From positions 1 through 26,916 of IMG/VR virus record IMGVR_UViG_3300049166_000023: a stretch of 26,916 nt of DNA; one strand, 5' to 3'. Each line of letters starts with the position of its first letter. The stretch's first letter is position 1. A program made the translations under genes and the position numbers. This stretch comes from a virus. Its lineage: Duplodnaviria > Caudoviricetes. Below are positions 1,762 to 26,303 of this stretch, piece after piece. Below the pieces are notes generated by a model. It made no database searches. It was not told the origin of the DNA and saw nothing but the letters and a program-made list of their open reading frames with translations.

Positions 1762-3897
1762 TTATATTTTCCCTCGTGCTTTCAATTTCTTATGTACTTT
1801 AGTAAATATATTGTTTACGTCATCTTCTGAACCAACCATTTTATCTACATGGAAATAAAACTTATATTCATGATTATAAGTGTCGTTACTTGTACTATTC
1901 GAATTGGTTACGTTATTAGCTTCAATTCTCTTAGCTAGTCTTTGATAAACAGCATCAGCAAATGGATCCATTTGTTTACCGACTAAGGGAACAATTGCTT
2001 CTTTTCCTGCTTCACCAAGACCAGCGATTGTAGGTGTATCAAAGAAACCACCATTTTTGTGCCATTCAATATTAAAGTCTGGATAAGGAATGCCCAAACT
2101 GTTCTTTTTCATATCAACTGACACTTTAGGAAGTTTCAACTTAGGTAATGACCACTCAAAGTTGAACGCATCCTTAATTCTATCAATCATAGTACGGACA
2201 ACATCGACTGATTCTGTAATTGGTGAAGTAATTGCATCTTTAATTTTATTAAAGATTTCTTGAGCTGTTGAGTAGATATTGTCAAAGATTTCTGAAACTC
2301 TATTTTTCATGGTATCAAAGGTTGTTCGAACAGTATAACTTATCCCCGAAACTACAGAAGAAACAAAAGAGCTAATCCCATTCCAAATAGTGGAAAAGTA
2401 CTCTTTGATATATGCTAAAGCTACGCTCACCACCGTTTTGATAACATTAAGAGCCTGTGAAATAACTCCTTCAATTACAGACATGACACCGTCTACAATT
2501 TGTTTGATGCCTTCCCATGCTTTATCCCAGTCACCAGTTAAAACACCTAGAACAGTGTTTACGATACCTAAAATAACATCTAGAACACCAGATATTACTG
2601 TTTTAGCATTTTCCATTGTATTTGTCACATAGTCGATTATTATGCTACCGTATTTATCCCATAAATCAGAAACTCGTTCTAGAACAACGCTAATAATTTC
2701 GCCAATGGTTTCCATGATTGTCTGAATGGTTTCTTTCATTGCTGAAAATGTTCCATCAGAATCAGAACGCATAACCTCAATCTTCTCTCTGAAAAAATCA
2801 ATGATTCCAGCAATAAACTCAAAGGTTGCATTCATTGCGTCTTGAAGCTTTGGAAGAATCTTTTCAGCAAGGTTCATCATGACTTCACCAACTGGCATAA
2901 GTCCAACCATTGCATTATTTTTCATTATTTGAAAACGTTCACCAAGAGTAAGAGTGTCTTCACCAGCTTTATCTATTGTTTCAGAAGAGTCGGCAAGTGT
3001 ATCTTGTAATTCCTCAATAGAAAATGCACCTGACTTAATCATTTCAGCCATTTCGGGTCCTGCTTTAGAACCGAATATTTCCATTGCTCTAGCGGTTGCA
3101 TCCCCTGCATCTTCCATATTCTCAATCTCTTCTATTACTTGAGGTAATACTTCGGCTGGGTCTTTTCCTTCTTTGGCAATATTAGCAATACCCTTACTGA
3201 AAGCTGACATTGCTTTGTCTGCATCATAACCTTTAGCTTCTAGATTCCCCATTAAAGTAGCTGCTTCATCATATTCCATTCCTGCTTGTCTCATAGTGGC
3301 ACCGTGTTTATCCATCTGACTCATTAAGTCACCCACACCAGCACCTGTTGTCTGTGCAACATTCCATAAAAGATCCATCTTGTCCATAGATTCTTCAGCA
3401 CCAATTCCCCAAGCTTCAAAACCACGAGAACCTGATTCAATTAGCTGGTCAGAAGCTTCACCACTGATACGTGATAAATCAAGATATTGCTTTGTTAAAT
3501 CCTCTAATCCATCACCAGTTTCACCAGTACGAGTGTTCAAATCTGCTAAGGCTGTAGCTACTTCCTCCGCATCTTGTGGAACTTCCTTAAAGACATTCTT
3601 AAATGAATCCTCTAAATCATTCAGTGCATCACCAGTAGCGCCTGTTCCAGCTCTAATAATGCCACTAGCTTTTTCAAATTCTTGACCAGCATTGAAAGAA
3701 GCTGTACCAATTCCAACAAGGGCTGCACCAATACTTGCGACAGCTCCTAGAGCGATACCTCCAAGCACCTTCCCCATCTTAGAACCTTTTTTCTCTGTGT
3801 TGTTCATGCCTTTTTCAGCATTAGCTAATCCTTTTTCTAGACCTGAGCTATCAACGGATATTTTAGCTTGATAGGAACCTAAATCATATGTAGACAT
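1762..3897 (-). CDS. Phage tail tape measure protein (711 aa)
   Basis: N-terminal YDLGSYQAKISVD; TP901-like Ala/Gly-rich helical core; amphipathic W/F repeats (LTGDWDKAWEGIK); C-terminal GG..PTIAGLGEAGKEAIVPL motif; position after the tail chaperones. Confidence 0.93.
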   Translation of the reverse strand: MSTYDLGSYQAKISVDSSGLEKGLANAEKGMNNTEKKGSKMGKVLGGIALGAVASIGAALVGIGTASFNAGQEFEKASGIIRAGTGATGDALNDLEDSFKNVFKEVPQDAEEVATALADLNTRTGETGDGLEDLTKQYLDLSRISGEASDQLIESGSRGFEAWGIGAEESMDKMDLLWNVAQTTGAGVGDLMSQMDKHGATMRQAGMEYDEAATLMGNLEAKGYDADKAMSAFSKGIANIAKEGKDPAEVLPQVIEEIENMEDAGDATARAMEIFGSKAGPEMAEMIKSGAFSIEELQDTLADSSETIDKAGEDTLTLGERFQIMKNNAMVGLMPVGEVMMNLAEKILPKLQDAMNATFEFIAGIIDFFREKIEVMRSDSDGTFSAMKETIQTIMETIGEIISVVLERVSDLWDKYGSIIIDYVTNTMENAKTVISGVLDVILGIVNTVLGVLTGDWDKAWEGIKQIVDGVMSVIEGVISQALNVIKTVVSVALAYIKEYFSTIWNGISSFVSSVVSGISYTVRTTFDTMKNRVSEIFDNIYSTAQEIFNKIKDAITSPITESVDVVRTMIDRIKDAFNFEWSLPKLKLPKVSVDMKKNSLGIPYPDFNIEWHKNGGFFDTPTIAGLGEAGKEAIVPLVGKQMDPFADAVYQRLAKRIEANNVTNSNSTSNDTYNHEYKFYFHVDKMVGSEDDVNNIFTKVHKKLKARGKI

Positions 3898-4205
3898 TAG
3901 TTTTCACCTCCTTCTGCTTGAGAAGTGGTGTAACCAGTCAACGCTCTAATAGCAGATAGATCAGCATTTTTTCTTGGATTCATGTATCTACGTGCTTTAT
4001 CTAAATACTCTCTTCCTTCTTCTGATTTCCGTAGTTCTTTAACATGGCATTGTTTGATATATGCTAGGAAATGGCTGTGAGGCATTTGTAGAATACGATC
4101 ATGAGGAAAATTATAATAAGAGGCTAATAGAGCGAAGTCACTAAACAATTCATACTCATCATTAAAAGAAGCCGTATCCCCTTTATTAGAAGGAAGATAC
4201 GGCAC
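3897..4205 (-). CDS. Tail assembly chaperone GT-like C-terminal part, reached by -1 frameshift
   Basis: Lies in the -1 frame relative to the upstream chaperone, has no obvious RBS and abuts the TMP start. Confidence 0.75.
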   Translation of the reverse strand: MPYLPSNKGDTASFNDEYELFSDFALLASYYNFPHDRILQMPHSHFLAYIKQCHVKELRKSEEGREYLDKARRYMNPRKNADLSAIRALTGYTTSQAEGGEN

Positions 4206-4217
4206 TTTTAGTTTGGG
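4171..4217 (-). promoter_or_regulatory. Programmed -1 ribosomal frameshift signal
   Basis: Correctly phased heptamer C CCA AAC just before TAA, then 7 nt, then hairpin GCCGTATC...GATACGGC. Confidence 0.78.
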
Positions 4218-4534
4218 TTCTGTGCATTTTCAGTTACTTTTTCTTGATAAATCTCAACAACACGCTTCATTTGTGAAACGCTTAGATTTTTTTCAACGAA
4301 TTCCTCTGTAACGTCTTTTGATTCGTCTTGGCTTAGGATTAAAGTAACCATCTTCACGAACAAACCAAACTGAGCTTTATTCGTTTTTACTTTCGTTGCC
4401 TTATCTTCAAAATCTAAAAGTTGATTTACAAGATGCACACTCGGTTCTGGTGGAATAGTAAACATATTATCCTCACCGAATTTTAAAATTAACTGTTCTT
4501 GTGTTACTAAAGAAAGATCAATAATTTTTGACAT
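4208..4534 (-). CDS. Tail assembly chaperone G-like
   Basis: Located between the major tail and TMP genes; AAGGAG RBS favours MSKIIDL (4534) as the start. Confidence 0.75.
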   Translation of the reverse strand: MSKIIDLSLVTQEQLILKFGEDNMFTIPPEPSVHLVNQLLDFEDKATKVKTNKAQFGLFVKMVTLILSQDESKDVTEEFVEKNLSVSQMKRVVEIYQEKVTENAQNPN

Positions 4535-4576
4535 ATAATACACTCCTTATAATTGTTTGATATTTTTTGTGTAAAT

Positions 4577-4602: not shown

Positions 4603-5106
4603 TTAGATTTCTTCAGTGATTGTTACGATGTTTCCATCTGATTTTGTTGTATCAGCTAATAATGTAAATTCAAAATCAAAGGCAGTTGCTTCTTCAGCAT
4701 TAAATGTCCATTGAAGACCACTACGATTTTGTGCTCTATGCATCTCTAGAGTAATAGTCTTTCCATCTTCTTTCGTATGGACAAAACGTAATCGCTTAAT
4801 AGGAACAGTTCGTTTACCGCCAATTCCTAGTGTGCGAGTCCCTGCTGTTGTATCTTCACTAAAATATCCTGCCATAAATTCACTGATATTTTTAAGATCA
4901 TAAGTCACGATTCCAGCATTAAAAATAACAGTTTCCGATGTCATGAAGCTTCCAATAATCTGATTCTTAACTCCACCCCTTACATCTGTGAATTCGTTAG
5001 AGGCATTTAATGTAGCTTCACCACTACTTTCACCAACCTTAGTTTCTGTTTCATCCTCCGCAACAATAAAAAGTTCACCTGTACCAAATAAAATTTCTTG
5101 TGACAT
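4603..5106 (-). CDS. Major tail tube protein
   Basis: Synteny; beta-rich sequence (ILFGTGELF...VGESSGEATL...FEFTLLAD) typical of siphovirus tube proteins. Confidence 0.75.
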   Translation of the reverse strand: MSQEILFGTGELFIVAEDETETKVGESSGEATLNASNEFTDVRGGVKNQIIGSFMTSETVIFNAGIVTYDLKNISEFMAGYFSEDTTAGTRTLGIGGKRTVPIKRLRFVHTKEDGKTITLEMHRAQNRSGLQWTFNAEEATAFDFEFTLLADTTKSDGNIVTITEEI

Positions 5107-5113: not shown

Positions 5114-5557
5114 TCATCCTTTCGTTTTTACAATAAAATAGTTAATCTGTTCGAATACATTTTCGCTTTCATGAAAAAATAAACTCCCACCTGTCATAAG
5201 TTGAGAGTTTAAAATAACCGTATTATTAACAGTTGTTGATGGTCGCTCTACATTTGCTTTGCTAAAATCCATTAATTCAACTAATCTATTTGAAATGTTA
5301 CTAAGCTCTTCTTCCTTATCTGTTACGATTGTTAATTGCACACGGTACTCATTCGTGACAATGTTGTGAGAGAAAGGTACAAGATTATAAACAACATATG
5401 GGTAGTCTACAAAGCTTCCCTTTTCATTCTCTTGATCTTTATTAAAAACTTGTGGTCTCATAAAGAATATTTTCAACTTATTCTCATATGGATAGTGATT
5501 GAGTAGTTCACTTAATTTTTCATCAGAAGTTAGGTATTGAAAGAAAGTTGTAATCAC
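5114..5557 (-). CDS. Tail terminator/completion protein
   Basis: Synteny; YPYVVY motif. Confidence 0.6.
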   Translation of the reverse strand: MITTFFQYLTSDEKLSELLNHYPYENKLKIFFMRPQVFNKDQENEKGSFVDYPYVVYNLVPFSHNIVTNEYRVQLTIVTDKEEELSNISNRLVELMDFSKANVERPSTTVNNTVILNSQLMTGGSLFFHESENVFEQINYFIVKTKG

Positions 5558-5889
5558 TTAGGAGTCATCCCCTTAGCAATCATCTGTTGCATATTACCTT
5601 GGTTTTGCTCAATTGCATCACGTATATATGGCTGAGCTGTAATATTACGAACAACTGAACCCTCGTGTACCACCTCAGCATATTCAACATTTGAGGTTCC
5701 AACTGTAATATCACTTTGATTTTCTTTATGATCAACTTCTGAATTAGTATTTCTACGCAAATTGCCTGTCTCTCCGACTGGACTCCGCATTTTCGACTCT
5801 CTTTCCATCAACATACTAATCTCATTAGCTACTTTTTCACGTTGATTTCTTACGTCTTTGATAGCTTGCTGAAATTTGAAATTCTTCAT
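5554..5889 (-). CDS. HK97 gp10-like neck protein
   Basis: SPVGETGNLRR...VEYAEVVHEG...AQPYIRDA motif. Confidence 0.85.
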   Translation of the reverse strand: MKNFKFQQAIKDVRNQREKVANEISMLMERESKMRSPVGETGNLRRNTNSEVDHKENQSDITVGTSNVEYAEVVHEGSVVRNITAQPYIRDAIEQNQGNMQQMIAKGMTPK

Positions 5890-6209
5890 TAATTAGCCCC
5901 CTTTCGAATGAGGACTTCGTAATGTTTATCATATTTCATGATTTCCGTAACCTTGTACGGCTCTTCTTGATATTCTATATCTGAAAGAATCTTTAGCTTG
6001 TCGTTAGGTTTGCAGAATACACGATTCGTACATTCTACATAAACACCATATGTATGCTCAGCTAAAGTATTGGAATACGGTTCAACGTCACCCTTAAACG
6101 GGGTTTTAACTATTTGAGTATCATCATAAATTGGCTGACCTATAGATGTGTAACCAATAATTTCACCCTGCTCCTCAGTAACGATATATAGAGTTTTAGT
6201 AAGTCTCAT
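5889..6209 (-). CDS. Head closure / head-tail adaptor
   Basis: Synteny, size, overlapping start and stop codons with neighbours. Confidence 0.6.
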   Translation of the reverse strand: MRLTKTLYIVTEEQGEIIGYTSIGQPIYDDTQIVKTPFKGDVEPYSNTLAEHTYGVYVECTNRVFCKPNDKLKILSDIEYQEEPYKVTEIMKYDKHYEVLIRKGAN

Positions 6210-6511
6210 ACAAACTTCATCCTTCTGTTTTCATTCAACCTACGAACAATATCAGGAGGAAGATCATCCCTATAAGATTCACTCAAACTACCCTTACCCT
6301 CAGATACAATATTTTCAACACCCTTATTACGGTAATTAAAAATAGAAATACCCTCAGCTAATTCATCAAGAGTAGAATCAAGCTCTGTTACATTGCAATA
6401 TTTCAAGACTTGGTTTGTTGCTCTGGATAAATAAAGTGATAGAATATTATCCTCACTTGTATCATCTGCTGCAATATCTAACAATACTTTGATATTTTCA
6501 ATAGTAGGCAT
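6206..6511 (-). CDS. Head-tail connector (SPP1 gp15/HK97 gp6-like)
   Basis: IKVLL...DNILSLYL..A...YCN...YRNKGVEN..SEGKGSLSESY pattern. Confidence 0.85.
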   Translation of the reverse strand: MPTIENIKVLLDIAADDTSEDNILSLYLSRATNQVLKYCNVTELDSTLDELAEGISIFNYRNKGVENIVSEGKGSLSESYRDDLPPDIVRRLNENRRMKFV

Positions 6512-6760: not shown

Positions 6761-7573
6761 TTAAACTGTTGCTGTAAGTACTGCTAGTGCCTCAGAACGA
6801 ATTACTTCACTTCCGTAAACCATAAGTCCACGTACTCCATCAGCCATAGTGGATTCCAGACGCATAGCTTCAGTTTTATCAAGTTGCTTACCATGTCCAA
6901 TAGCAGATTTATGAAGAGCAAGGAATTTGTAATCACCATTAGCATTAGTAGCAATTTCTTCTGAAACAACTACTTGCAAGCCATTGATTCGTTGCCCCTC
7001 CACTATTCCATTTTCTAATACTGTTGGATTTTTTGTAAAACGATCATCCTTAGAAAGAAGACCAAGCGCCTCAGCATTAATTACAACAAAACGGTCTGAT
7101 TTAGGTACTTTCTTTTTAGAAAGCTTTGTTCCTAAGTCAACGATAGTATCATAAATGTTAGTTTTACTTAATGTTACTGGAGTTGTATCATCACCAATCA
7201 CATTATCAGCATGTGCTCCAGTGTATAGACCAAGAATAAACTTATCTACTGTTTCTTGAAGTGAAGCTGAAGCTTCTGAAGTATGTGTATCAACTAAATC
7301 TCCTGCACTTTGGATGGCATCTACATCATCAACTGAAAATGCGAAATATTTCTTTTGATCCATGTTTAGCTCTACAGGAGTTGTACTTACTGTATCCCAT
7401 GAAATTGTACCTTCATAATCTTTAACTGCTACTGCTCCAGCACGATTAAAGATAATCTTATTACCTTCAATTTTTACTGGTTTTGAAGTAATTACTTCTG
7501 CAATAGAAGCCTTTCGGAAGTTTGTTAATAGACGACTTTCCCATACACTTGGAATAAATGATTGTACTGACAT
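6761..7573 (-). CDS. Major capsid protein (270 aa, HK97 fold, P22 coat/N4-gp56-like type)
   Basis: FIPSVWESRLL start, DQKKYFAFSVDDVD, ADGVRGLMVYG end; follows the scaffold gene. Confidence 0.9.
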   Translation of the reverse strand: MSVQSFIPSVWESRLLTNFRKASIAEVITSKPVKIEGNKIIFNRAGAVAVKDYEGTISWDTVSTTPVELNMDQKKYFAFSVDDVDAIQSAGDLVDTHTSEASASLQETVDKFILGLYTGAHADNVIGDDTTPVTLSKTNIYDTIVDLGTKLSKKKVPKSDRFVVINAEALGLLSKDDRFTKNPTVLENGIVEGQRINGLQVVVSEEIATNANGDYKFLALHKSAIGHGKQLDKTEAMRLESTMADGVRGLMVYGSEVIRSEALAVLTATV

Positions 7574-7680: not shown

Positions 7681-8328
7681 TTAGTTACTTTTTAATGCTT
7701 CACTCACAACTTCCCAATCTAAAGCACTGACTTCTTCAGTGGACATACCTTCGAGTTGTTCACGAGTGATTGTTTTTGGCTTCTCTCCATCTTTAGGAGT
7801 AAAACCATTCGACTTTAATTTTTCATTTACAACTGTCTGTAAATTGTTTGACCAAACGTTCTTTAGGCTTTCTAAATTGGACATTGTAGACTCTTTACTT
7901 TTCGTACCATCTTCATCATCGTCTTTTTCCAAAGAGATAAAATAATCAACGATTTCAGAAGGTAATTTATTATCTGTTGCAAATTTTAATGCATCATTGC
8001 GAACAGATTCACGAATTGTTTTCGACTTCCAACGTTCAATCTCTGCTAAAGCCTTTTCAACCTCTAAAGCCTCTGGACTCTTATTTGCAGGGTTACGCTT
8101 TGCAATTTCATCCTCAATAAGCTGAGGCATAGTTTTCTGTTTAAACGTGTCTAAACCTTTAGTAAAATAACTATCTAGTTTTGGTTGTAAAAGCTTCTTA
8201 CCATCTTCTGTATCAAGAAACGCTTGAACTCCCTCAGGTGTTACTTGAGATAACCCCTCTAGGTATGCTTTTACTTCTTCTTGATCCTTGTTCTCTTCTA
8301 AAAACTTCTTAATTTCTTCTAATGTCAT
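7681..8328 (-). CDS. Capsid scaffolding protein (DUF4355-like)
   Basis: Acidic and helical; LLQPKLDSYFTKGL motif; GGAGG RBS gives start MTLEEIKK at 8328. Confidence 0.8.
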   Translation of the reverse strand: MTLEEIKKFLEENKDQEEVKAYLEGLSQVTPEGVQAFLDTEDGKKLLQPKLDSYFTKGLDTFKQKTMPQLIEDEIAKRNPANKSPEALEVEKALAEIERWKSKTIRESVRNDALKFATDNKLPSEIVDYFISLEKDDDEDGTKSKESTMSNLESLKNVWSNNLQTVVNEKLKSNGFTPKDGEKPKTITREQLEGMSTEEVSALDWEVVSEALKSN

Positions 8329-8445
8329 AGATATAACCTCCAACCCTTTATGTACGAGCCATAAAGTGCAATATTTTTGTTTTTCACGTTGTTCTTTTAC
8401 GTCTGCAACATAAAAAAAGACATACAAAAAAGCCACTATAAGTGA

Positions 8446-9309
8446 CTATATTTCATTAGCTTCTGCCCATTCCTTATAGTTTTGATAAGAAATGTACTCT
8501 TTTGTTTCATTATCTTTTCTGATATTCGTACCACCTTCAACTACTGGTACAATATCGCATTTACAATTTGGATGAAAAGGAACGATAGGACGCATAGAAT
8601 CATTAAGATCAAATATTTGTCCATCTAATTCAGCACAATCAGCACATGTATTAGCTTCAAGAGTGGCTAACCATTGAACTTGTTGAATCCCATTCTCTTC
8701 ATAAATCTTTTCACGAGACTCAGTAATGATATGAGCAGTCTCAGTCCTTACAAGTCTTTGAGACTGATAAGCTTTACTATCAAACTGCTCATCAAACACT
8801 TTTGCAATCTTATCAAGCTTATGACCTTCACGAATTCCGCGTTCTAGATTAGTTGACAAAGCTTCTTTTAGTGCCTGTTGATTCATCCATATTCGTTCAG
8901 AATAATGAGCACCTGACCAATCATTATTAATGAACCCATCAAGTATAGAATCATTTACACGATCAAAATTAATGCCAAAACCTATATTCTGCTCTAATGT
9001 GAAAGCACTTCTATAATAAGATTGCGTAAAAGCTGCACCAATAATTGCTGTCATTGTTACAACTTCAAGAGTAGCAATATTATTTAGTTCTTCATCAACT
9101 TGCTCCTCAAACTTATCAATAACACCAGTCATATAAACTTGGTTGTAATCAATAACTCCATCTTCTGAATGATCCATATATAATTGAGCAACTAATTGTT
9201 TCAATTTATTCTTACTGTTTTTATACTGCTTTAAGACAACATCGTAATCATTATCAGATTCCCCTAATAGATCTTCTAAAATCTTTAATAAATCATCATT
9301 CAGAGCCAT
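8446..9309 (-). CDS. Minor head protein (SPP1 gp7 / Mu F-like)
   Basis: WSGAHYSERIW, RLVRTE, WLATLE.NTCADC..LDG, PFHPNCKC motifs. Confidence 0.9.
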   Translation of the reverse strand: MALNDDLLKILEDLLGESDNDYDVVLKQYKNSKNKLKQLVAQLYMDHSEDGVIDYNQVYMTGVIDKFEEQVDEELNNIATLEVVTMTAIIGAAFTQSYYRSAFTLEQNIGFGINFDRVNDSILDGFINNDWSGAHYSERIWMNQQALKEALSTNLERGIREGHKLDKIAKVFDEQFDSKAYQSQRLVRTETAHIITESREKIYEENGIQQVQWLATLEANTCADCAELDGQIFDLNDSMRPIVPFHPNCKCDIVPVVEGGTNIRKDNETKEYISYQNYKEWAEANEI

Positions 9310-10618
9310 TATTATTACCTAACATTTGTTGATTTCTATTTCTTAAATCAGCATCTAAACCAGTAGAATCTAATCCATTTTTCAATTTTTTAATTTCTAA
9401 TGAAGGTTCTTGGATCTTTGGATGCCATGAAAGGAGAGTTTCTAGGGGTACTATATTGACTAATTTAGCAATTTGATCTGTAATAGCTGCCTCATCTGCT
9501 GGGATATCTCTAGAAAATTTAAATGTAATGTCAGAAGGAATGTATTCCTTACCTTGTTTATTTAACATGGTTACAATCATACGAATACGTTTCCTTAATG
9601 CCTTTTCCATCTTACGTTCCTTCATACTGCTCTTTGTTTCAAGTCCGAAAAGGTGAAATTTAAGAGCTTGCCCACTTAGGTTACTGGAGAATTTAGAAGA
9701 AGTTAATCGAGGAGTATCTGATTGCTCATGAATTAAATGATCAAGTGTTTCGTATAAATTATTTTGAAATTCTGCATTAGCATCTTTCGTTAAAAACTTG
9801 GCTTGCCCAACATCATCCAATAAAAGTACTCCATCTTGCTTCATTTGTTCAATGTCTTCTTTTTCTGTGGCTTTATACCCTGCCAAAATTAAGTACGCAT
9901 TAACAAAACTTTCATTACTATTAATAGCATCAGAAAGTAAGGTGTTTATTGCATCTACTTGAGTAATAATTTCCTCAAAATCGCCTTGTTCTTCTTCATT
10001 GTTTAGGTAAATAGTAATTGGAACTTCACCAAAATAATGCTCAAGATCATTTTCATTTTTATCTGAAACGTATGTTTTCCCACCATCATTAGAAATAAAA
10101 TGATAAATTCCATTTTTATCATACACTTCAACTTTTATTTCCTTTGAATTATCATCTTTTTTCAATTCCCAATAACGTAAACCAAAGAGAATATTATTCT
10201 TACTATCTCTTTCTATATACATTTCGAGTGGACTGTAATGATTGAATCGTATGTTGCCATTCCTATCAATAAAGTACAGTTCATAGCATTTGCCGTATAT
10301 GGAAAATGTCTTAATAATTTCAGCGTTTGTATCTTCCTCATTATTTATATAGTTAATTATCTTTAAATCATTCAAGAAATTTTGATTACCTGATTGTGAC
10401 ACATAAGCAAGTGGCATAGATGCAAAGTACCCTAACATCGTGTTAATTATTTTCTTAGGATACAAGGTAACTACTTTATTGTTTGGCTTCTGCGGATCAG
10501 GTAATTTACGATTTAAAATTTTATGCTTTCCTATGTAATAATCAAATAATTTTTGATACCTGGGTAATTCTAATTTGTGTTTCTTAATCGCTTCTTTAAT
10601 TTGATTGCTTGTAATCAA
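9296..10618 (-). CDS. Portal protein, SPP1 gp6-like
   Basis: YYIGKHKIL, PNNKVV, HYFGEVPI..Y.NNEE..GDFE, NLSGQALKF motifs. Confidence 0.93.
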   Translation of the reverse strand: MITSNQIKEAIKKHKLELPRYQKLFDYYIGKHKILNRKLPDPQKPNNKVVTLYPKKIINTMLGYFASMPLAYVSQSGNQNFLNDLKIINYINNEEDTNAEIIKTFSIYGKCYELYFIDRNGNIRFNHYSPLEMYIERDSKNNILFGLRYWELKKDDNSKEIKVEVYDKNGIYHFISNDGGKTYVSDKNENDLEHYFGEVPITIYLNNEEEQGDFEEIITQVDAINTLLSDAINSNESFVNAYLILAGYKATEKEDIEQMKQDGVLLLDDVGQAKFLTKDANAEFQNNLYETLDHLIHEQSDTPRLTSSKFSSNLSGQALKFHLFGLETKSSMKERKMEKALRKRIRMIVTMLNKQGKEYIPSDITFKFSRDIPADEAAITDQIAKLVNIVPLETLLSWHPKIQEPSLEIKKLKNGLDSTGLDADLRNRNQQMLGNNNGSE

Positions 10619-10629: not shown

Positions 10630-12396
10630 CTATAGTCCTAATATTTTTCTATCTAGTGATTGAATGCGCTTATTATTAATCTTTATTTCATCTATTCTGT
10701 TTGCAAACTCAGCTAAACAATCGGCTGCGTCATCATGGAGAGTAAATTGCTGACCAGAAAAATCCATTACCTGATCTAAGAATGTCTTTTCAACTCTTTC
10801 TTCACAAAAAATAATCCTACCGTTATCCACATCAGAGACAATAGTAGAAATCTTTTCATCCTTATTCTTTCTTTGCATTTCATTAATAAAGGTAATATTT
10901 CTTTTTGCAATGGATGGATGTTTAATAATCTCATTTTCGATACGCTCAACATCTAAACCGTTATATGTATTCTTCTCAATAAATACATGCGTAAGATCCT
11001 CAAATTCTTCAAGCAACTCAATCACATGATTTATATAATGATCAAATTCATCAAACTTTCTAAGTTGTCCTTTGCGAATATATTTGAAATCATTATCAGC
11101 TAAAGAGCCAACAACAAATGCAAAGTAATCGGAACGAGTCTTATTTTTATTTTTAACACCAGCAGTATCAATCGTAAGCAATGTTTTCTTAAAGCTATGA
11201 TCTTCAATTTCTTCAATTGTTTGTGTACGATTTGACTTGAACCACTTGTCACCAATATTTTCAACGTTACACATTAGCTCTTGCATGAAAGCTAATCGTT
11301 TAGTAAAATATTTTAGCGCTAAATTATAGCAATCATACTTCTCCCAAATTGTAAGAAATTCCATACAATCTTGATTCTCAATAAAATATTGTTTAGCATC
11401 TTCTGTTGAATCTTCACGCTTATCATCAAAAAGGATATTTCTGAATTCCTGCCAATACTCATGATTATCAAAATACTCATCAACATTAAATTCTACAACA
11501 CTTCTGTGAAAGACTTTATATTCAGGATTCTTTGAGATTGAATCAATGAAATCACCTTGAGCAAGTGGAGTACCTAGAACTAAAAACTTAGTAGCTGGTT
11601 TAATCAATTTACCATTACGATAAACCGCTGCATCTCCACCTTCTTCTACTTCTTTTAGCCACTTCTGATACTTCTTTTGCTTGCTATCATCGGTTAAGAT
11701 ATCACTCTCAGCAATATAATCATCAGCTATGTAGACCATAGGACGGTAAATACCTTTAGGGGATATATAACCAGCACCACGAACAGAGGAACCAGAGGAA
11801 TAAGCCTGTATTTTAGTATCATTATCCAATTCTAATTCAAGTTTATTGACAGTACGTTTACGAGGATTAACCAAGTTTCCGAATGCGTGGACAATGTGAG
11901 GAGTTTTCAATGCTTGCTTAGTTTGATCAACAAAATTAACCGCATCTAACTCACGATTAGCGAGTACAATTGTATAACGACTTAAGCCATAGCAATGGAG
12001 ATAACAACTCAGAGCCATATCAATAATAGTTGTTTTGGCACAACCTCTAGGTAGAATGAATTCTTGCTTATCATGTTTGTGATTAATGAATATATCTTCT
12101 AATTGCTTCCATACTTCATAATGAACAGGAGCTAAAGGACGAACAACATTATTATCTTTAGGGATAAAGAAGTCCTGTAGGAAATATTGACAGAAGAATG
12201 ATAAGGAGCGTTTACCAAGAGAATATGCGAGGCTATTTTCACCAAATAGGTTCTTGTCGTGCTTAGTCATGAGAGCTTTCACTCGTGCTTTAGCTGTGCT
12301 AGAGTCTAAGCCTTTATTTTGCGTTAATTCTTTATACAAGTAATCTCTGAGTAGATTACGATTTTCAATGGTGTTAAAATTAGTTATTTTGTTCAC
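10630..12396 (-). CDS. terL: Terminase large subunit
   Basis: Walker A PRGCAKTT, Walker B YIADD, coupling motif LGTP, nuclease motifs TIDTA and HDDAAD. Confidence 0.92.
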   Translation of the reverse strand: MNKITNFNTIENRNLLRDYLYKELTQNKGLDSSTAKARVKALMTKHDKNLFGENSLAYSLGKRSLSFFCQYFLQDFFIPKDNNVVRPLAPVHYEVWKQLEDIFINHKHDKQEFILPRGCAKTTIIDMALSCYLHCYGLSRYTIVLANRELDAVNFVDQTKQALKTPHIVHAFGNLVNPRKRTVNKLELELDNDTKIQAYSSGSSVRGAGYISPKGIYRPMVYIADDYIAESDILTDDSKQKKYQKWLKEVEEGGDAAVYRNGKLIKPATKFLVLGTPLAQGDFIDSISKNPEYKVFHRSVVEFNVDEYFDNHEYWQEFRNILFDDKREDSTEDAKQYFIENQDCMEFLTIWEKYDCYNLALKYFTKRLAFMQELMCNVENIGDKWFKSNRTQTIEEIEDHSFKKTLLTIDTAGVKNKNKTRSDYFAFVVGSLADNDFKYIRKGQLRKFDEFDHYINHVIELLEEFEDLTHVFIEKNTYNGLDVERIENEIIKHPSIAKRNITFINEMQRKNKDEKISTIVSDVDNGRIIFCEERVEKTFLDQVMDFSGQQFTLHDDAADCLAEFANRIDEIKINNKRIQSLDRKILGL

Positions 12397-13068: not shown

Positions 13069-13104
13069 AAAAAGAAAAAGACCATCACTTATCTGTGACC
13101 GTCT
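13069..13104 (-). terminator. Terminator after the recombinase gene
   Basis: AGACGGTCAC...GTGATGGTCT-TTTCTTTTT. Confidence 0.65.
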
Positions 13105-13663
13105 ATAATACAAACGTATCTAATTCTTTTTCAATCTCTTCATCAGTAATACCAATGTAAGTTAACGTTATCTTCGGTGTACTGTGATTAAGAATGTGTT
13201 GAAGCTTTGCAACGTCCTTTGTCTGCTTATAGAACCAGTAGCCAAACGTCTTACGCATTGTATGAGTACCAATTCCTTCCTCAATATCAACCATCTCTGC
13301 TGCTTTGTTAAGCTGTCTATAAGCTTGAGTAGAACTGATAGGCTTATCACCTTTACGAGAAGGGAATAACCACTCACTATCCACTGTCTTAATATACTCT
13401 TGAATCTCATCATATATATTGCCTAGGTTTAATACTCTAGCCTTCTTTGTTTTACCTTCTTGAATAGTAACCTTTCTCTTCCTTTTAAGATCACTAACTT
13501 TAAGCTTTAACAAATCGCCTACACGTAGTCCAGTATTGATACCAATTAAGAATAATATGTAATCACGCTCATTACACCATTTCTTAAGCGACCACTTCAT
13601 GTCCTCTAATAGTTCTTTGCTTCTAATTGGCTGAACATCTTTAATTTGATTTTGTGTAGTCAT
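13103..13663 (-). CDS. Tyrosine recombinase, catalytic domain only (186 aa)
   Basis: GLRVGDLL (R), KTKK (K), HTMRKT (HxxR), LNHS (H), TLTYIG (Y). Confidence 0.92.
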   Translation of the reverse strand: MTTQNQIKDVQPIRSKELLEDMKWSLKKWCNERDYILFLIGINTGLRVGDLLKLKVSDLKRKRKVTIQEGKTKKARVLNLGNIYDEIQEYIKTVDSEWLFPSRKGDKPISSTQAYRQLNKAAEMVDIEEGIGTHTMRKTFGYWFYKQTKDVAKLQHILNHSTPKITLTYIGITDEEIEKELDTFVL

Positions 13664-15637: not shown

Positions 15638-15643
15638 AATTAA

Positions 15644-15673
15644 ATATTAACAAAATACAACTACAATTGTCAA
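15644..15673 (-). promoter_or_regulatory. SigA-type promoter for the small RNA
   Basis: TTGACA-18 nt-TAATAT with extended TGn. Confidence 0.65.
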
Positions 15674-15679
15674 TACTTT

Positions 15680-16315
15680 TTATCTGTATTCTATTCCTTC
15701 AGTTATAATATTTTTATAGTTATCTAATATTTGTTTAGTCTGCTCATTAGCTAATTGCTTACGTCCTTTATCCTTTTTTGGAAGTCTATTGATTACTTCA
15801 ATTCTTCTTGAGTGAACGTATTTTATTTGAGAAAAACTAACATAACTTTTATTAACACTCACTCCTGTAGCACTTGGTAAATTGAGGTTTTCAAAATACA
15901 AAGTGTTACTACCAAAATCTTGTACTTTAGAAGTTAAAGGGGCTACTAAAAACATCTCTCCTTTTCTTGAAAGAACTACAGCATAATGAGTATCATTAAT
16001 TTCATCAGTGAATCCAAAACCATAATGAACATTTATGATATCACCGTGCTTTAAATTGTAGGGAAAATTCTTCTTTTTAACTTTGTCTAAATCGGCTTTG
16101 ACTTTATCCTTTGATACGATTCCGTTTTTAATTTGATTTTTTAAAAATCTTTCTTCCGAGTGTTTTCTGGCACTAACAAGTTTATGTATATACCAATCTG
16201 AAACAAAAATTGCGTTTTCAGTATCTAATTTTAACAATTCACCTTTTAATGCATTTATCTTCCCTAATAATTTACCATCTATTCTCACTCTAGTATCATT
16301 TTGCATCATCTTCAT
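15680..16315 (-). CDS. PemK/MazF-like endoribonuclease with N-terminal extension
   Basis: HGDIINVHYG...E....HYAVVLS....LVAPLTS...S.V...QI..V...RI pattern. Confidence 0.78.
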   Translation of the reverse strand: MKMMQNDTRVRIDGKLLGKINALKGELLKLDTENAIFVSDWYIHKLVSARKHSEERFLKNQIKNGIVSKDKVKADLDKVKKKNFPYNLKHGDIINVHYGFGFTDEINDTHYAVVLSRKGEMFLVAPLTSKVQDFGSNTLYFENLNLPSATGVSVNKSYVSFSQIKYVHSRRIEVINRLPKKDKGRKQLANEQTKQILDNYKNIITEGIEYR

Positions 16316-16987: not shown

Positions 16988-17031
16988 TTTATTCTATATA
17001 CTATTCACTAGTTAATAATTTTATTTGTAAG

Positions 17032-17104
17032 TGGACTTAGAGGGAATTGAACCTCCATCACACCAGTTATGAGCTGGTTGCTTTACCTATTAAGCTATAA
17101 GTCC
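17032..17104 (-). tRNA. tRNA with CAU anticodon (Ile2-like or Met), CCA not encoded
   Basis: Cloverleaf: acceptor GGACTTA/TAAGTCC, D stem GCTT/AAGC, anticodon stem ACCAG/CTGGT with loop CTCATAA, T loop TTCAATT. The T stem has one G-U pair and one A-C mismatch. Confidence 0.9.
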
Positions 17105-19401: not shown

Positions 19402-22107
19402 CTATTGGTGTGAATTTTTTGACTTAAATGCGTTCAAGAAAACTTCTCGTTGTGTCGAATGTAAAATATTCAACAATTTAATCGCATCTTCACTATTATC
19501 TTTGATCATTCGCATTAAGATAGCACACATCGTATCTTCTTTCACATTTAATTTTTCAATATGAAAATTGTAGTATTTAACAATATTTTTGATGCGATTG
19601 TTACGCTCATCCTCATCTCGAATACTGCTATATGCATTTTTTATATTACTACTGTATTTCTTTACGTTATCTCTTATCTTCTTTTGCTGGTGGCGGTTAG
19701 CTTGTTTTACTTTATGCATCACCAGCAAGCTTCTGAAATCAACATTCTCTCGTTTAGTTGCATATTCTAAATTACCTAATTCTTGAGCAAGATAATCCAT
19801 CGGACATCTGTAATATTTAACTCTATTTCTAATAGTGTCGCTTTCACTTATGAACTGCCAAAATTTAGGCTTCCTTTCAGCTAATTCAGGTAATTCTTCA
19901 ATATGCTCAATCTCATCTTTAATATTGATTTTATAAAGCTTTTTACTCAGGTCAATGACTACACCGGATAAAACTGTTAGAACATCAGTCTTCTTCAACA
20001 ACCTTTCGAGCTTCCTTCCTTTCAACCCTTTATCTTTAAGATCCCAATATGTCGATAAACAAAATTGACCTAAATTTACCACATCTCCAATTTTCTTTGA
20101 GCTTTCAGCTAAGGTATTATCAATTTCACACATACTCGTTTTATTTAAGCTATATTGCTTCTTTTCACTTTCCAATTTATTAATACAGACACGATATCCC
20201 TTCTTACAATCCTGAGCAATAACTTTCAATTTTTCGCTATCAATCAGAAGCACCGTATCTGAGTCATAGTCGCAGCCTGATAAAGTATCCTGCAATGGAT
20301 ATTCCCAAGCGTTAACTGCCACAATATTCTTACTAAAATTAAAATACTGTTCTAACTTATCATTATCCGTATTCTTAGCTAATAAAACGTTACTCGGACT
20401 GGTATTAGGATTTCTAAACCCTACCAATTCAATTCCAAAATCAAATAATTTTGTATGTACCTCATTACCTTCAAGCGTTAATACTGGATTATCAATATCA
20501 AATTCTCCAATACTATGTAGAAGCATTTCGTAAGGATTGCCGACCATGACACAATAGTCTGCTTTAGGAATACGAACCTTTCCACTTTTGACTTTTTTAC
20601 CATAATCATAGATTTCCTTAGAACGAAACTCCCTGAAAATTTCAGTATGTACAATATCATTATTTTGTATATATAGATCAACCAACATCTGATTACTATT
20701 CATTTCATTAGCATTTTTTTCAAGATGTTTTATGAAATGGTCATCATTCTCTTTTAAGTCCATTATGTAGTTTCTCTCATAGCTTGCAAGCTCAGCGACT
20801 TCATCTTTACTTAGCGGTAAGCAATTAATCATTTGGTAAGAAAGTGATTGAAGTATATTACCCTCTTCATCTGTTCCGTGTTTGGATTGCTTTTCATGCT
20901 TGCAAATTCCAAAGGAACAACCTTCATCACTGACTAGCTGTTTCCAATGCTGAAACATTTTATCGTTTAATTTCCTCACAACTTCCTTATCTTTAAGATT
21001 GTCACCTTCTTCAGCAAAGACATGACTGAACTTAAGACATTTAAGGCTAGAAGGAGTCGTTATCATGTGAACGTCCTTTGCATGAATCGTATTACCGAAC
21101 ATGTCAGTAAGCTCCCATTTATCATAAGCAATATCATCTGGACAGTTATCTTCAAGAAACTGCTGAATATTAGTATTAAACGCTGCTGATTTAAAGAAAT
21201 GGTGACGTAATAGCTTCATTGATCCAACATCATCATAATATTGCTCATCCAGCAATGATTGTCCATCAAATAAACTATTGCTAACTTTAACATTCTCTTT
21301 GAAGCTGTCTAGAAGCTTACTCTTCTTATCAGTTTTTACTACATTACATACCTCATCAAATTCACTCTCAATATCATCCACCACAAGAATGTTGTTAGGA
21401 TTAATTTTAATCGTTTCTTCAATACTCGAACCAACAAGAGACTCATAAGCAAGTAGGCTAGCTAAATCAATTGGTTGATCTTCTTTGAATGGCAAGTACA
21501 TTCTTGACCAATCAATCATTTCGTCATAAAGCTCTTCTCGGATAAACAACACCTGTCCAGTGCGACTTTTTGAGCTAGAGCGCCTATAAACCTTATAGAC
21601 AATTTCTTCAACTTCGTGTGTCTTTTCATCTACAAATTTAATCGTAAAGCCATTCTCATAAAGATATTCTCTCAAGTCATCATTTTTAATCTCTTTCCAT
21701 TTCTCCTTATAAACTTCGGGATCAGTTTTTTCACTTTCTATATAACTAATGAAGTCTTCAAGAGTTTTCTTGTAGTTCTTTAGCTTATCCTTTTTTTCTT
21801 CAGTTTCAGAATTAGCTATCTTCTTATCTTGTTTTCTAATTTTACTTTTACATGCTTGAATAATCTGATCTCCCGACTTAACCTTTTGTTTAAATTTCAC
21901 ATTGATTATGTCATTGCTAATTTCTTTGTCACTGGTTTTAACAGGCATTGTTGACAATCCTTCATCCTTCACCTTCATCAATTCTAGACTATGCGGTATC
22001 ATTCCCACGTAATCAAGATTAACTTCTTTATCTCTGAACACGTGACCGTAAATATCATTTCCCTCAAGACTTAATATGTATACTTGCTTATTGTTGTTTG
22101 CTTCCAA
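19402..22107 (-). CDS. Single-subunit two-barrel RNA polymerase, YonO-like (related to eukaryotic RdRP), 901 aa
   Basis: RRSSSKSRTGQ, SLFDGQ, LLRHHFFKSAAF, SYQMIN, FRNPN, catalytic GCDYDSD (DxDxD at 20257-20271), IGDVVN and VIDLSKK motifs in RdRP/YonO order; AAGGAG RBS with TTG start. Confidence 0.85.
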   Translation of the reverse strand: MEANNNKQVYILSLEGNDIYGHVFRDKEVNLDYVGMIPHSLELMKVKDEGLSTMPVKTSDKEISNDIINVKFKQKVKSGDQIIQACKSKIRKQDKKIANSETEEKKDKLKNYKKTLEDFISYIESEKTDPEVYKEKWKEIKNDDLREYLYENGFTIKFVDEKTHEVEEIVYKVYRRSSSKSRTGQVLFIREELYDEMIDWSRMYLPFKEDQPIDLASLLAYESLVGSSIEETIKINPNNILVVDDIESEFDEVCNVVKTDKKSKLLDSFKENVKVSNSLFDGQSLLDEQYYDDVGSMKLLRHHFFKSAAFNTNIQQFLEDNCPDDIAYDKWELTDMFGNTIHAKDVHMITTPSSLKCLKFSHVFAEEGDNLKDKEVVRKLNDKMFQHWKQLVSDEGCSFGICKHEKQSKHGTDEEGNILQSLSYQMINCLPLSKDEVAELASYERNYIMDLKENDDHFIKHLEKNANEMNSNQMLVDLYIQNNDIVHTEIFREFRSKEIYDYGKKVKSGKVRIPKADYCVMVGNPYEMLLHSIGEFDIDNPVLTLEGNEVHTKLFDFGIELVGFRNPNTSPSNVLLAKNTDNDKLEQYFNFSKNIVAVNAWEYPLQDTLSGCDYDSDTVLLIDSEKLKVIAQDCKKGYRVCINKLESEKKQYSLNKTSMCEIDNTLAESSKKIGDVVNLGQFCLSTYWDLKDKGLKGRKLERLLKKTDVLTVLSGVVIDLSKKLYKINIKDEIEHIEELPELAERKPKFWQFISESDTIRNRVKYYRCPMDYLAQELGNLEYATKRENVDFRSLLVMHKVKQANRHQQKKIRDNVKKYSSNIKNAYSSIRDEDERNNRIKNIVKYYNFHIEKLNVKEDTMCAILMRMIKDNSEDAIKLLNILHSTQREVFLNAFKSKNSHQ

Positions 22108-22350: not shown

Positions 22351-23445
22351 TCAACAGAATAAATCATCTAACTCATTAGCGATATTATGTGTGATTTCAT
22401 TCGGTAGTGTTGGTTCTAGCTCTATTTTCCTAACCTCATGAACTATGTTGGTTGATCCTGCTTTTATAAGAACATGTAGTAACTTTTCTGTGTCTTCTAT
22501 GTAATTATCTTCAACTCGGCAATCACTTGTTTTTAAAGTGCCCCATACTGCCTCGTTTTCCTTTATTGCCTTTTTTCGTCTTTCGTTGGCATTATGTAAA
22601 AATTTATTTATTACCGTTTCGTTTAATTTGCCTTTCTGAATATCAACATCTTTCAGAAGAAGATCCAATATACTGTTATATGTTGAGAGAATCCCTTTTT
22701 GATTAAGAGTTATATCGTATGCAGAGTAATAAAAATCAATTTCAAAAGCATTATCATTATGTATCTTTTCTTTCACACGTTGCTTAAAGTCAAACCATTT
22801 ATTTGTACCTACCACATCTGAAACTTTATGTATTTTCGCTCCAAGAAACTCAGTATTCATTTCATCTAACACTTCTCGTTCGCAACTGATTATAAATTCC
22901 TCTTCATCTACATCAGCTATTTCATGCTTATATTCATCTAAACGCTTAATCATTATTGCCTTTTTGAAAAAGATACACCGTCTATCTTCAAGGCTTTTTA
23001 GCGCTCGTTTAATAGTCCCTCTGAAACTCGAATCACTTGAGTTATAAAAATCATAGACAATCGCTCGATTAACATTGATATGCTGCGCAAACTTTGGTAT
23101 CATTCGACCACACTCAGAATAATTCGAGTTAGCCATGTTCATAGTCCGCAATAGTTGATTATTAGTCTTCACTATCCGTTTTTCCTTATTGCGTGCTAAT
23201 AAATCTAAAATAAGTAGTTCAACAAGGCGAATAAAGTCTGAACCGTTTTTAAGTTTTGGTTTAGGTTTCTCGTATATCTCTTCGATAATAAACGAGTGTC
23301 CTTTTTTGGAGTATCGAAAGTAACGTTCCAAGTCCAATAGTTGATATTTTTTACCTTTACCAGCTTTAATGGGAATTTCCAACTCAGCACACAAAGCCTT
23401 GTAGTTTTTTATTACTTGCCCTTCTCCTAGATTGCTAACCTTCAA
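22351..23445 (-). CDS. Hypothetical DNA-binding protein (364 aa), possible replication protein
   Basis: Basic N-terminal domain KNYKALCAELEIPIKAG..K..QL; lies directly upstream of the origin-like hairpins. Confidence 0.65.
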   Translation of the reverse strand: MKVSNLGEGQVIKNYKALCAELEIPIKAGKGKKYQLLDLERYFRYSKKGHSFIIEEIYEKPKPKLKNGSDFIRLVELLILDLLARNKEKRIVKTNNQLLRTMNMANSNYSECGRMIPKFAQHINVNRAIVYDFYNSSDSSFRGTIKRALKSLEDRRCIFFKKAIMIKRLDEYKHEIADVDEEEFIISCEREVLDEMNTEFLGAKIHKVSDVVGTNKWFDFKQRVKEKIHNDNAFEIDFYYSAYDITLNQKGILSTYNSILDLLLKDVDIQKGKLNETVINKFLHNANERRKKAIKENEAVWGTLKTSDCRVEDNYIEDTEKLLHVLIKAGSTNIVHEVRKIELEPTLPNEITHNIANELDDLFC

Positions 23446-24773: not shown

Positions 24774-25244
24774 TTATCCAATGTTGTTCCCTTTTTGTTT
24801 CTCCTTCAAATTCCTCTTTAGCATTTCTTCAAGTGAACCACTCTTAATCATTTTACTCATTAATTCCGTAGTATTTAGCTTAGATTTACCTTCTTCAAAT
24901 TGAGTTAGGTTCATATCAAGTAAAGTCAATTCATTACTTCTAATTGCCTTCATAAATAACTGTAATCGATATAAATTCTCTTCTTCTTTAGTTTTTATTT
25001 CTCCATCAAATTCACGTTCAAATTTAATTAACAATATATCAATTTGATCTAATATTGAAATGTCTTCCTGTAAATAAGCAGGGGGTAAACCAAAGTATTC
25101 AACTAACTGATCTAATCTTTGCTCTGGTATAGCTCTTCTTCCCTTAATCCAATCCTGAATAGTTGGCTGTGATACACCTAAAATAGTTGCAAGCTCCTTT
25201 CTTTTTACTTCAAAGGTTTCAATAACAAACTCTAAGCCAATCAT
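24774..25244 (-). CDS. XRE-family HTH repressor-like protein (156 aa)
   Basis: KRKELATILGVSQPTIQDWIKGRRAIP; GGGAGTGA RBS gives start MIGLEF. Confidence 0.85.
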   Translation of the reverse strand: MIGLEFVIETFEVKRKELATILGVSQPTIQDWIKGRRAIPEQRLDQLVEYFGLPPAYLQEDISILDQIDILLIKFEREFDGEIKTKEEENLYRLQLFMKAIRSNELTLLDMNLTQFEEGKSKLNTTELMSKMIKSGSLEEMLKRNLKEKQKGNNIG

Positions 25245-25256
25245 AACTTCACTCCC

Positions 25257-25311
25257 TGACACGTTTTCGTGGCTATAAACACATATTACACCTGCCACGA
25301 AAATATGTCAA
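25257..25311 (-). promoter_or_regulatory. SigA promoter overlapped by an inverted-repeat operator
   Basis: TTGACA-17-TAATAT; arms TGACACGTTTTCGTGGC (25257-25273) and GCCACGAAAATATGTCA (25294-25310). Confidence 0.75.
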
Positions 25312-25490
25312 CAACACCATTTGATAATATTCATTTTACTTTTTTCATCTTTTCAGAAAACGACCATTTAAACTGCCAGAGGGATCAACTTACAATATAT
25401 ACTCCAAAGATAACAACAAGCTCATAGCACCAGTAAACAATATAAACCACTCTATACTTTCCAAACGTCTAATGTAGCGTTCTACAAGCC

Positions 25491-26303
25491 TCATGCTGAC
25501 ACCTCCAGCCATGACATACTAGTTGTACCTGTAAAGTTTTCTGCACGCTCTCTGCGCTTCTCAGTAACGAAAACAGACAACAGACCACTATAGAAATAGC
25601 CCATGAAATCTTTCTTGATACGGTTAGACTTCAGCATGAATATAGACTGTTTGAACGTGGAGATAATAGTCTTGATGTAATCGTTTGGGCTAGTTATATT
25701 AGAGTGCTTAGCTGCAAGTAAGACCTTTCCCCATGATTTGAAGATATCGGATGCACAAAAGAAACCTTTAGCAACTCGAACGTATTCTTTAGGGATATGG
25801 TTAGGAACAAACGATTCATCTAATTGTTCAATTTTCGGCTTTTCTTTACGTATTGCTTTATTAGTATTAGATTGTTTTTCAGTTTTAATTAAGTTCGCCT
25901 TTCTGTCATCCCCCTGCTTTTCTTCACTTTTCACAACCTCACAAGGCAAAATAATGTAGATATTAGCCCCCTGCTTAGCTCTTCTAGACTTAGTAAGTGT
26001 ATAAGTCTCAACTACTTGAATAACTCTCAGATCAACTAATTTAGCTATATAACGAGATATAGAACGTTCTGATAATTCAAGCTCATTTGCTAACTCAGAT
26101 ACTTTTCTCCAACTAACTCCAGTATGATTTTCAAAAGTAGAGTATTGAGATAATAGTTTTAAAAATTGACGCTCGTTACGGTTCAGTGATGGATTTTTAC
26201 AATGTGCGTTGATATGCTTGTTCATTTCTGAAACATCATTAAACTGCTTGAATTGCTTTAGCTTTTGGAATTCATTTTGTGAAATCATAATTCTTTTCTG
26301 CAT
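25491..26303 (-). CDS. Winged-HTH protein, probable plasmid-type replication initiator (270 aa)
   Basis: GVSWRKVSELANELELSERSISRYIAKL....I.....QGANIYII (HTH_36-like); GGAGG RBS gives start MQKRIM at 26303. Confidence 0.7.
   Translation of the reverse strand: MQKRIMISQNEFQKLKQFKQFNDVSEMNKHINAHCKNPSLNRNERQFLKLLSQYSTFENHTGVSWRKVSELANELELSERSISRYIAKLVDLRVIQVVETYTLTKSRRAKQGANIYIILPCEVVKSEEKQGDDRKANLIKTEKQSNTNKAIRKEKPKIEQLDESFVPNHIPKEYVRVAKGFFCASDIFKSWGKVLLAAKHSNITSPNDYIKTIISTFKQSIFMLKSNRIKKDFMGYFYSGLLSVFVTEKRRERAENFTGTTSMSWLEVSA

Follow-up and report, generated by a model that had tools for sequence, protein, structure and literature searches.

A tip-less element and its relatives

The window analysed here is the whole of virus record IMGVR_UViG_3300049166_000023 (26,916 bp), from a Bacillus-type (Bacillales) host, and it carries a phage-like element that encodes its own head and tail shaft and in which we found no genes for the tail tip or for lysis. 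Read along the minus strand, it comprises a Rep-like initiator, a helix-turn-helix (HTH) regulator, a 364-aa protein, an RNA polymerase, small open reading frames (ORFs) and cargo up to the terminase subunit TerS, then a small tyrosine recombinase, TerL, portal, gp7, scaffold, capsid, neck and tube, and finally two chaperones, a 711-aa tape measure protein (TMP), a hairpin with a T run and a lipoprotein-like gene, with sda beyond (Table 1). The head, neck and tail-shaft ORFs are all present on this strand and full length relative to those of relatives, and the hairpin follows the TMP stop immediately; the first-pass annotation had likewise described an apparently intact set from TerS to TMP, with no visible pseudogenisation and a terminator directly after it. 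It had also listed no ORF for Dit, Tal, receptor-binding protein (RBP), holin or endolysin, and none of the 41 window ORFs matched any of these in Pfam or PHROGs.

Table 1 Features of the window, from the right end along the minus strand
Feature	Position	Strand	Basis or remark
3′ end of host queF	26800..26916	-	right boundary, host DNA; 117 nt
Three AAGTGACCA repeats	26699..26775	-	likely integrase arm-type sites of attachment region
Winged-helix replication initiator-like protein, phage type	25491..26303	-	phrog_1835 E 5e-37, phrog_428 E 9e-8
XRE/HTH regulator	24774..25298	-	PF01381 E 9e-10
364-aa protein, no assigned function	22351..23445	-	phrog_36702; homologues precede polymerase in several loci
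Single-chain two-barrel (YonO/RdRP-like) RNA polymerase	19402..22107	-	901 aa, motif DYDSD
tRNA-Met (CAT), cargo	17031..17104	-	
PemK/MazF-like protein, cargo	15680..16315	-	PF02452 E 6e-6
Terminase small subunit (TerS)	13824..14249	-	phrog_2538 E 2e-18
186-aa catalytic-domain-only tyrosine recombinase	13103..13663	-	PF00589, phrog_216
Terminase large subunit (TerL)	10630..12396	-	phrog_38 E 2e-62
SPP1-type portal	9296..10618	-	PF05133 E 5e-100
SPP1 gp7-like minor head protein	8446..9309	-	PF04233, phrog_115
Scaffold	7681..8436	-	PF14265, phrog_172
Major capsid protein	6761..7573	-	phrog_267 E 1e-66
Neck block	5114..6511	-	PF05135, phrog_132, phrog_5, phrog_78
Head-tail adaptor	6206-6511	-	part of neck block
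Likely head closure	5889-6209	-	assigned by position only
Neck1	5554-5889	-	part of neck block
Tail terminator	5114-5557	-	part of neck block
Tail tube protein, family-defining	4603..5106	-	assignment rests on fold
Tail assembly chaperones	3897..4543	-	gpG (4208-4543), gpT (3897-4205)
Tape measure protein, final virion gene	1762..3897	-	PF10145, phrog_991; C-terminal segment ~residues 612-656
Terminator-like hairpin and T run	1717..1755	-	hairpin (1755-1723) ~6 nt past TMP stop
Lipoprotein-like cargo	411..1376	-	N-terminal lipobox-like sequence, phrog_11546; lies where tip genes normally start
Sda sporulation inhibitor, cargo	5..181	+	PF08970; element runs on past position 1

Relatives were gathered by portal and tube profiles over viral contigs and genome samples. 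A tblastn search of 50,697 phage records found nothing matching the tube, whose top PDB matches in a fold search were tail tube proteins (E 4e-7), with the SPR tube best at 11-16% identity. Sequence reaching 1.8-32 kb past the TMP was available for 21 elements with this tube family, the window included; three of them have near-identical tubes, which leaves about 19 independent elements. The TMP is the last virion gene in all 21, a recurrence that the first-pass annotation had proposed to look for, and in none is it followed by Dit or Tal, as against the one-off deletion that it had named as grounds for giving up its proposal. Four further relatives (L137, G650, L021 and L135) end too soon after the TMP to judge.

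A first PHROGs scan covered 146 of the 157 downstream ORFs of 12 elements together with four others (150), a Pfam scan took 150 mostly upstream ORFs out of a pool of 239, and a second PHROGs scan added 124 further ORFs, with short, antisense and already matched ORFs left out; G788 was examined by local BLAST only. Among these 150, 150 and 124 element ORFs neither database identified a holin, a canonical endolysin or a tip block. The only Dit-Tal-holin-endolysin set recovered, which serves as a positive control, lies in a separate prophage remnant adjoining the G004 element; that remnant holds tail and lysis genes and is head-less.

In a tube tree with two long outgroups left out, the 20 tip-less rows form one side of a 99% branch, and more distant tubes (25-36% identity) occur in tipped phages such as L004, G467, G762 and G164. 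The capsid was rejected as a family marker, capsids 66-70% identical being found in ordinary tipped prophages. Members are rare: the portal picked them up in 4 of 401 Bacillales genomes, the tube, at family-level scores, in 5 of 269 genomes of one family, and a metagenome scan returned at least one among the 15 loci listed. This is a real and recurrent element family, and apparently an undescribed one: a literature search, in which subscription journals were thinly covered and supplements lay outside the search, found no description of it.

Variant arrangements were also seen. Two tube-less variants, G004 (L092-L094) and G458 (L221-L222), combine a head with a 2157-aa or 2295-aa TMP, and G418 (L122-L123), also without a tube, has head, adaptor and closure only, along with an MrpR-like repressor of the SPbeta type (L122:1233-2168). 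The tip-less locus L283 has another neck and tube module and the same TMP C-terminal motif.

The virion genes are under purifying selection. Between the window and its closest relative, G005, the ratio of non-synonymous to synonymous substitution rates (dN/dS), a measure proposed at the first pass, was 0.05-0.26 over a set of 12 virion genes (dS 0.4-2.5), with 0.126 for the TMP, 0.168 for the tube and 0.10 and 0.14 for the chaperones; other pairs gave similar values, some of them saturated. The features around the TMP are kept as well. In 19 of 20 elements a heptamer of XXXYYYZ form stands in frame at the end of the first chaperone (the single element without it is possibly an ORF-calling issue), and the -1 frame reaches the TMP start; in the window the slippery heptamer CCCAAAC at 4211-4217 is in frame and intact, with 106 codons of -1 frame up to that start. 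A terminator-like site stands within 90 nt past the TMP in 18 of 20 elements compared with 8 of 28 control prophages scored by the same loose rule, and in the control prophages the ORF after the TMP starts within -28 to +19 nt. Hairpins homologous to the window's post-TMP hairpin are present in G005 and G421.

Record ends, integration and mobility

The 26,916-bp record was searched for a terminal repeat and for circularity, and neither was found. Its last 117 nt at the right are 68-87% identical to a single-copy gene, QueF, in five of five Bacillales genomes. Adjoining the queF end are three copies of AAGTGACCA, against 0.16 expected, one of which has 15 nt (GAAGTGACCAACTAA) in common with a site before the G005 tyrosine integrase; from these matches, the copies are likely to be integrase arm-type sites. 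The left end is a truncation: L001, a record 99.99% identical to the window, adds 3.46 kb of cargo and brings the element to at least 30 kb, for which reason sda, past which L001 continues, was rejected as a host boundary and counted as cargo. Three cargo ORFs of this extension are 62-86% identical to G005 ORFs in the same order, and in G005 the homologous cargo ORFs are followed by FtsK, a relaxase and a 388-aa tyrosine integrase. Tip or lysis genes just outside the window would have counted against the first-pass proposal; none was found in the 3.46-kb extension, three ORFs of which were in the PHROGs scan.

These comparisons point to a full element that is integrated, about 35 kb long and served by an integrase outside the record. 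If so, the earlier picture of a 26-kb mini-element with a plasmid-like replicon and no integrase falls. The window itself does lack a full integrase, as had been noted, but the queF site and the complete enzyme of G005 place one likely beyond the record end. The 186-aa tyrosine recombinase is likely not that integrase, judging by the relatives, which, besides a full integrase at an end, have one of three genes in the same position: this small recombinase, a longer tyrosine recombinase or a resolvase. By its PHROGs matches Rep is an HTH/replication initiator of phage type and not of plasmid type, with homologues at 29-33% in G002, G417 and G421, and no close portal was found among the plasmids of PLSDB (best match 32%). 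A phage-plasmid would be an extrachromosomal replicon; here the right end joins queF, and there is no terminal repeat. Single contigs of three soil runs, possibly the record's own source, span the TMP-terminator-lipoprotein junction, which makes a mis-assembly there unlikely; this support concerns the post-TMP junction and not the window's right half.

Five relatives (G001, G002, G285, G560 and G669) have host genes on both sides, measure about 32-37 kb and lie in chromosomes; G669 is bordered by direct repeats of 216 bp and G001 by ones of 10 bp. In G001 (L078-L081) and G002 (L086-L089), both of which carry a large serine recombinase, comGC, which encodes a competence pilin, is split at the identical place, and excision is likely to restore it. 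Integrases across the relatives are of serine or tyrosine type and stand at either end, while terminase, portal and capsid types reassort. The different sites, the two integrase types and the swapped terminase, portal and capsid genes indicate continued mobility.

The tape measure end and a proposed source of the tip

In phage TP901-1, as described in PMC5099701 and PMC4493119, the initiator needed for tube formation is proposed to consist of the TMP C-terminus, Dit and Tal, and loss of the last 30 TMP residues leaves heads only. A tube and a TMP that are under selection without Dit or Tal therefore imply an outside source of the tip. The motif PFADAV lies at the TMP end in 14 of 20 elements and in 0 of 28 controls. 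Scanning viral contigs for it gave 29 loci, 28 of them in TMPs; Dit/Tal-type genes come next in 16 of the 28 and in none of the other 12. The 16 tipped TMPs share 58-68% identity with that of the window over the 31 residues preceding the searched motif, and 20-30% further upstream. Listeria phage PSA and other isolated siphophages match the TMP-end region at about 45%. This pattern fits a conserved docking segment, and Bacillales siphophages with the same TMP C-terminal segment are candidate helpers. An SPbeta-like helper, considered for the 32-36% match of the G001 Dit and the SPR tube fold matches, was rejected as a weak lead at 11-16% tube identity.

We consider it probable that the window holds most of a helper-dependent chromosomal element that builds its own head and shaft and borrows only the tip (Dit, Tal and RBP) and lysis. 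What the first-pass annotation had suggested, a satellite class borrowing tip and lysis, is strengthened to the extent that tip-less, lysis-less and selected elements recur; helper dependence itself we infer. In such an element, excision would be carried out by the integrase beyond the left record end and replication would start from its own initiator; transcription of the late operon would fall to its polymerase, as it falls to YonO in SPbeta, and about 35 kb would be packaged in its own head. The chaperone-bound TMP would then dock its conserved C-terminus in the helper's Dit-Tal and nucleate the element's own tube, giving a chimeric tail with the helper's host range. Tip capture would reduce the helper burst, and escape would come upon the helper's lysis of the cell. 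A bolder version, to which we give about an even chance, sees the family as Bacillales 'tip pirates', phage-sized and nearly autonomous, with a TMP end that plugs into the tips of unrelated siphophages, a host range set by each helper and a drain on the tips of those helpers.

What known satellites take from a phage is the whole virion, the whole tail or most of the tail, and the element stands apart from each kind. Like those phage-inducible chromosomal islands that form capsids (cf-PICIs), it is integrated, has its own TerS/TerL, portal, capsid, adaptor and connector, and has no lysis genes that we found; cf-PICIs, in the accounts of PMC10085698 and bioRxiv 10.1101/2025.02.11.637232, make their own head and packaging machinery, are described without a holin and take phage parts for infectivity and release. 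The same accounts give them about 10-18 kb and no tail genes, with whole helper tails joined at the neck, whereas the present element, about 35 kb in size, combines a scaffolded head of SPP1 type with a neck, a tube, chaperones and a TMP and would do its borrowing at the tip. The SatelliteFinder cf-PICI definition forbids tail genes, and here tube, TMP, Neck1 and tail terminator are present; scaffold and gp7 take the place of the integrase-AlpA/Stl-primase-HNH-protease module, which is absent from the window, where Pfam and PHROGs gave no match for a primase, an HNH protein or a head protease.

Phage-inducible chromosomal island-like elements (PLEs) offer a parallel for the tail. In Vibrio cholerae, PLE11 is described as contributing TMP and chaperone to a chimeric tail with helper parts, and PLEs as relying on the myophage ICP1 for capsid, tube, sheath and the greater part of the baseplate while encoding a baseplate hub (bioRxiv 10.1101/2025.01.29.635557). 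The present element also encodes a conserved TMP and chaperones, from which a chimeric tail is predicted; unlike PLEs as described there, it has its own capsid and tube, a Bacillales host, and neither hub nor tip. The EPIPs of Mycolicibacterium, compared by description, are 11-kb satellites listed with capsid protein, TerS, adaptor, stopper and TMP and without tail proteins or holins (PMC12822802); they resemble the element in capsid, TerS, adaptor, TMP and the missing holin, whereas the element is larger, resides in another host phylum, and has a portal, TerL and tube, none of which is listed for them. The element works like a capsid-forming satellite, yet it is not a cf-PICI, a PLE or an EPIP: essential virion and lysis genes are absent and the remainder is intact and under selection, as in satellites generally, and no Dit-Tal-RBP or holin-endolysin set follows the TMP as it would in a complete siphoviral prophage.

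Several observations weigh against a borrowed tip. Upstream of TerS, two relatives carry a lone gene of tip type: in G001 it encodes a Dit, in G419 a virion-protein C-terminal domain. An M23 peptidase lies in the distal cargo of G285, G560 and L136. Including the two long outgroups in the tube tree raises the number of changes that it requires from one to two. Core genes are split or interrupted in at least four relatives (TerL in G001, portal and polymerase in G421, the tail terminator in G417, and an insertion sequence in the head-neck block of G415). The last 55 TMP residues are just 13-24% identical to those of tipped phages, and the set used for the TMP-end comparison was picked by motif search. 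Only two of five host genomes tested have Dit or Tal elsewhere, and co-resident prophages of G002 and G285 have TMP ends without the family motif; incoming phages, instead of residents, could be the helpers. The elements are phage-sized and not satellite-sized, about 5 kb of the expected 35 kb is unseen, and helper, particle, excision and transcript are all predicted from the genes. The G001 Dit (L080:4578-5405) is of a large Bacillus siphophage type (32-36%), and the G419 domain lies at L138:15869-16648; both are possible adaptors or decoys.

One alternative keeps the helper and moves the joint: heads would be joined to whole helper tails, as in cf-PICIs, and tube, chaperones and TMP would act mainly as a decoy soaking up invaders' tips, as the lone tip-like genes of G001 and G419 could too. 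Family members without the tube module, G418 with head, adaptor and closure and G004 with a head and its 2157-aa TMP, suit this scheme, and satellites that interfere with tail assembly are described (PMC11364771). However, Neck1, tail terminator, chaperones and frameshift, all under purifying selection, go beyond the needs of a decoy, and the shaft genes share a late operon with the head genes; we regard it as unlikely.

Dispensing with a helper altogether, the element might make a tip-less tailed or a tailless particle, with the TMP end or a small protein as initiator and release by autolysis or sporulation. Own replication and transcription genes, and a TMP C-terminal motif kept across distant hosts (14 of 20), would be expected of such a particle, as would the hosts of G001, G560 and G669, the three of five with no Dit/Tal family match: PF06605 and PF05709 gave none genome-wide, and the only PF20195 match in G001 is its lone Dit. 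One candidate for the small protein is a conserved ORF of 65-70 aa (L029:15912-16109 and homologues) that comes after the last virion gene in many relatives, at least five elements among them. It was rejected as a tip substitute: it belongs to no PHROGs, Pfam or Atlas family, the window lacks it, and in the tipped prophage G428 it comes after the tail-tip block. Moreover, complete phages use the identical TMP motif together with Dit/Tal, the TP901-1 accounts cited above propose that tube assembly depends on Dit-Tal, and no receptor-binding candidate is common to the family, all of which leaves a helper-free particle quite unlikely.

Loss of the tip-lysis block, once or repeatedly, from prophages now stranded or kept for their cargo would account for the broken genes of several relatives and for the existence of related complete prophages that have this polymerase and are laid out similarly, and the purifying selection could be older than the loss. 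We nevertheless judge decay very unlikely, because no tipped phage falls inside the tube family (18 viral loci and the matches in six genome samples), sites and integrases vary while terminase, portal and capsid reassort, and the break always comes precisely at the TMP stop, usually with a terminator. Highly improbable, finally, is a split prophage with tip and lysis genes at a separate host locus or in the unseen 5 kb: the window's own host genome lay outside the comparison and the remnant beside G004 could be read this way, but G005, covered up to its integrase, has no such genes, and the genome-wide searches of G001, G560 and G669 gave only the lone Dit.

If the element does borrow just tip and lysis, it marks the near-autonomous end of the satellite range, outsourcing the parts that set host range, and the TMP-Dit-Tal and tube-Dit interfaces work across unrelated phages; the head-only, head-and-TMP and head-and-shaft members would then trace a stepwise path from phage to satellite. 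Such elements resemble incomplete prophages (CheckV completeness of the tip-less provirus records is 36-50%) and would be rejected by the tail-forbidding models of SatelliteFinder, so they would regularly be overlooked. Sutcliffiella horikoshii, Alteribacillus sp. and Tuberibacillus calidus are named carriers in culture, which opens tip borrowing to direct test.

The RNA polymerase and remaining features

On its predicted fold, the 901-aa protein is a YonO-type two-barrel polymerase: the model (pLDDT, the predicted local distance difference test, 89) matched QDE-1/RDR2 in Foldseek at E 2e-12, with Thermus phage polymerases next, and this search settled an identity for which the polymerase profile found 0 matches among PDB sequences. 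The canonical motif of two-barrel polymerases is DxDGD; in the 34 homologues aligned, D613, D615 and D617 are invariant, and dN/dS against G005 is 0.077. The absence of a tblastn match to SPbeta at E 1e-5 makes the protein only a distant relative of YonO, which transcribes SPbeta late genes according to PMC5467207; by analogy, the element's polymerase would transcribe its late genes.

The first-pass reading of a private RNA polymerase thus stands as regards the enzyme but not as a hallmark, since it is common in complete prophages and not recognisable in several tip-less relatives; as a family or satellite marker it was rejected. Used as a single protein it found nothing in a viral scan, and as an alignment it found 47 loci, from large phages and from proviruses of 28-46 kb. 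Of 46 polymerase loci, 20 small records were checked: 12 had BLAST matches to control Dit/Tal, in six more the TMP was followed by co-oriented ORFs judged to be of tail type from their position and size, and two had neither. SPbeta and the complete polymerase-bearing prophages of Bacillota share with the element a single-chain two-barrel polymerase upstream of late genes and an SPP1-like siphoviral order; the complete prophages run on into tip and usually lysis genes, which the element does not. Among tip-less relatives, G005 and G669 have the window's polymerase type, several a divergent one and others none recognisable. In G426 (L247-L248) the polymerase family lies directly upstream of a tail-only block of TMP, two Dit-like genes, Tal and fibres, with no head genes within the 40 of 76 kb covered.

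The portal's best match among INPHARED phage records (50,697) is 36.7%, and the 364-aa protein belongs to no family in Atlas. Cargo at window positions 14854-17104 comprises a GNAT-like protein, an HTH protein, the tRNA-Met, which was the only Rfam match in the window, and the PemK/MazF-like protein, beside which no obvious antitoxin partner was seen. A hairpin repeat of about 40 nt, with no Rfam match, lies between cargo genes at window positions 289-328 and in three copies in the L001 extension, with further variants at loose ends in run contigs; it may be a cargo-cassette mark or a small repeated terminator. A 28-nt element occurs as an inverted pair, 82% alike, at 19328-19355 downstream of the polymerase and at 25874-25901 within rep, and is possibly an operator or origin site.

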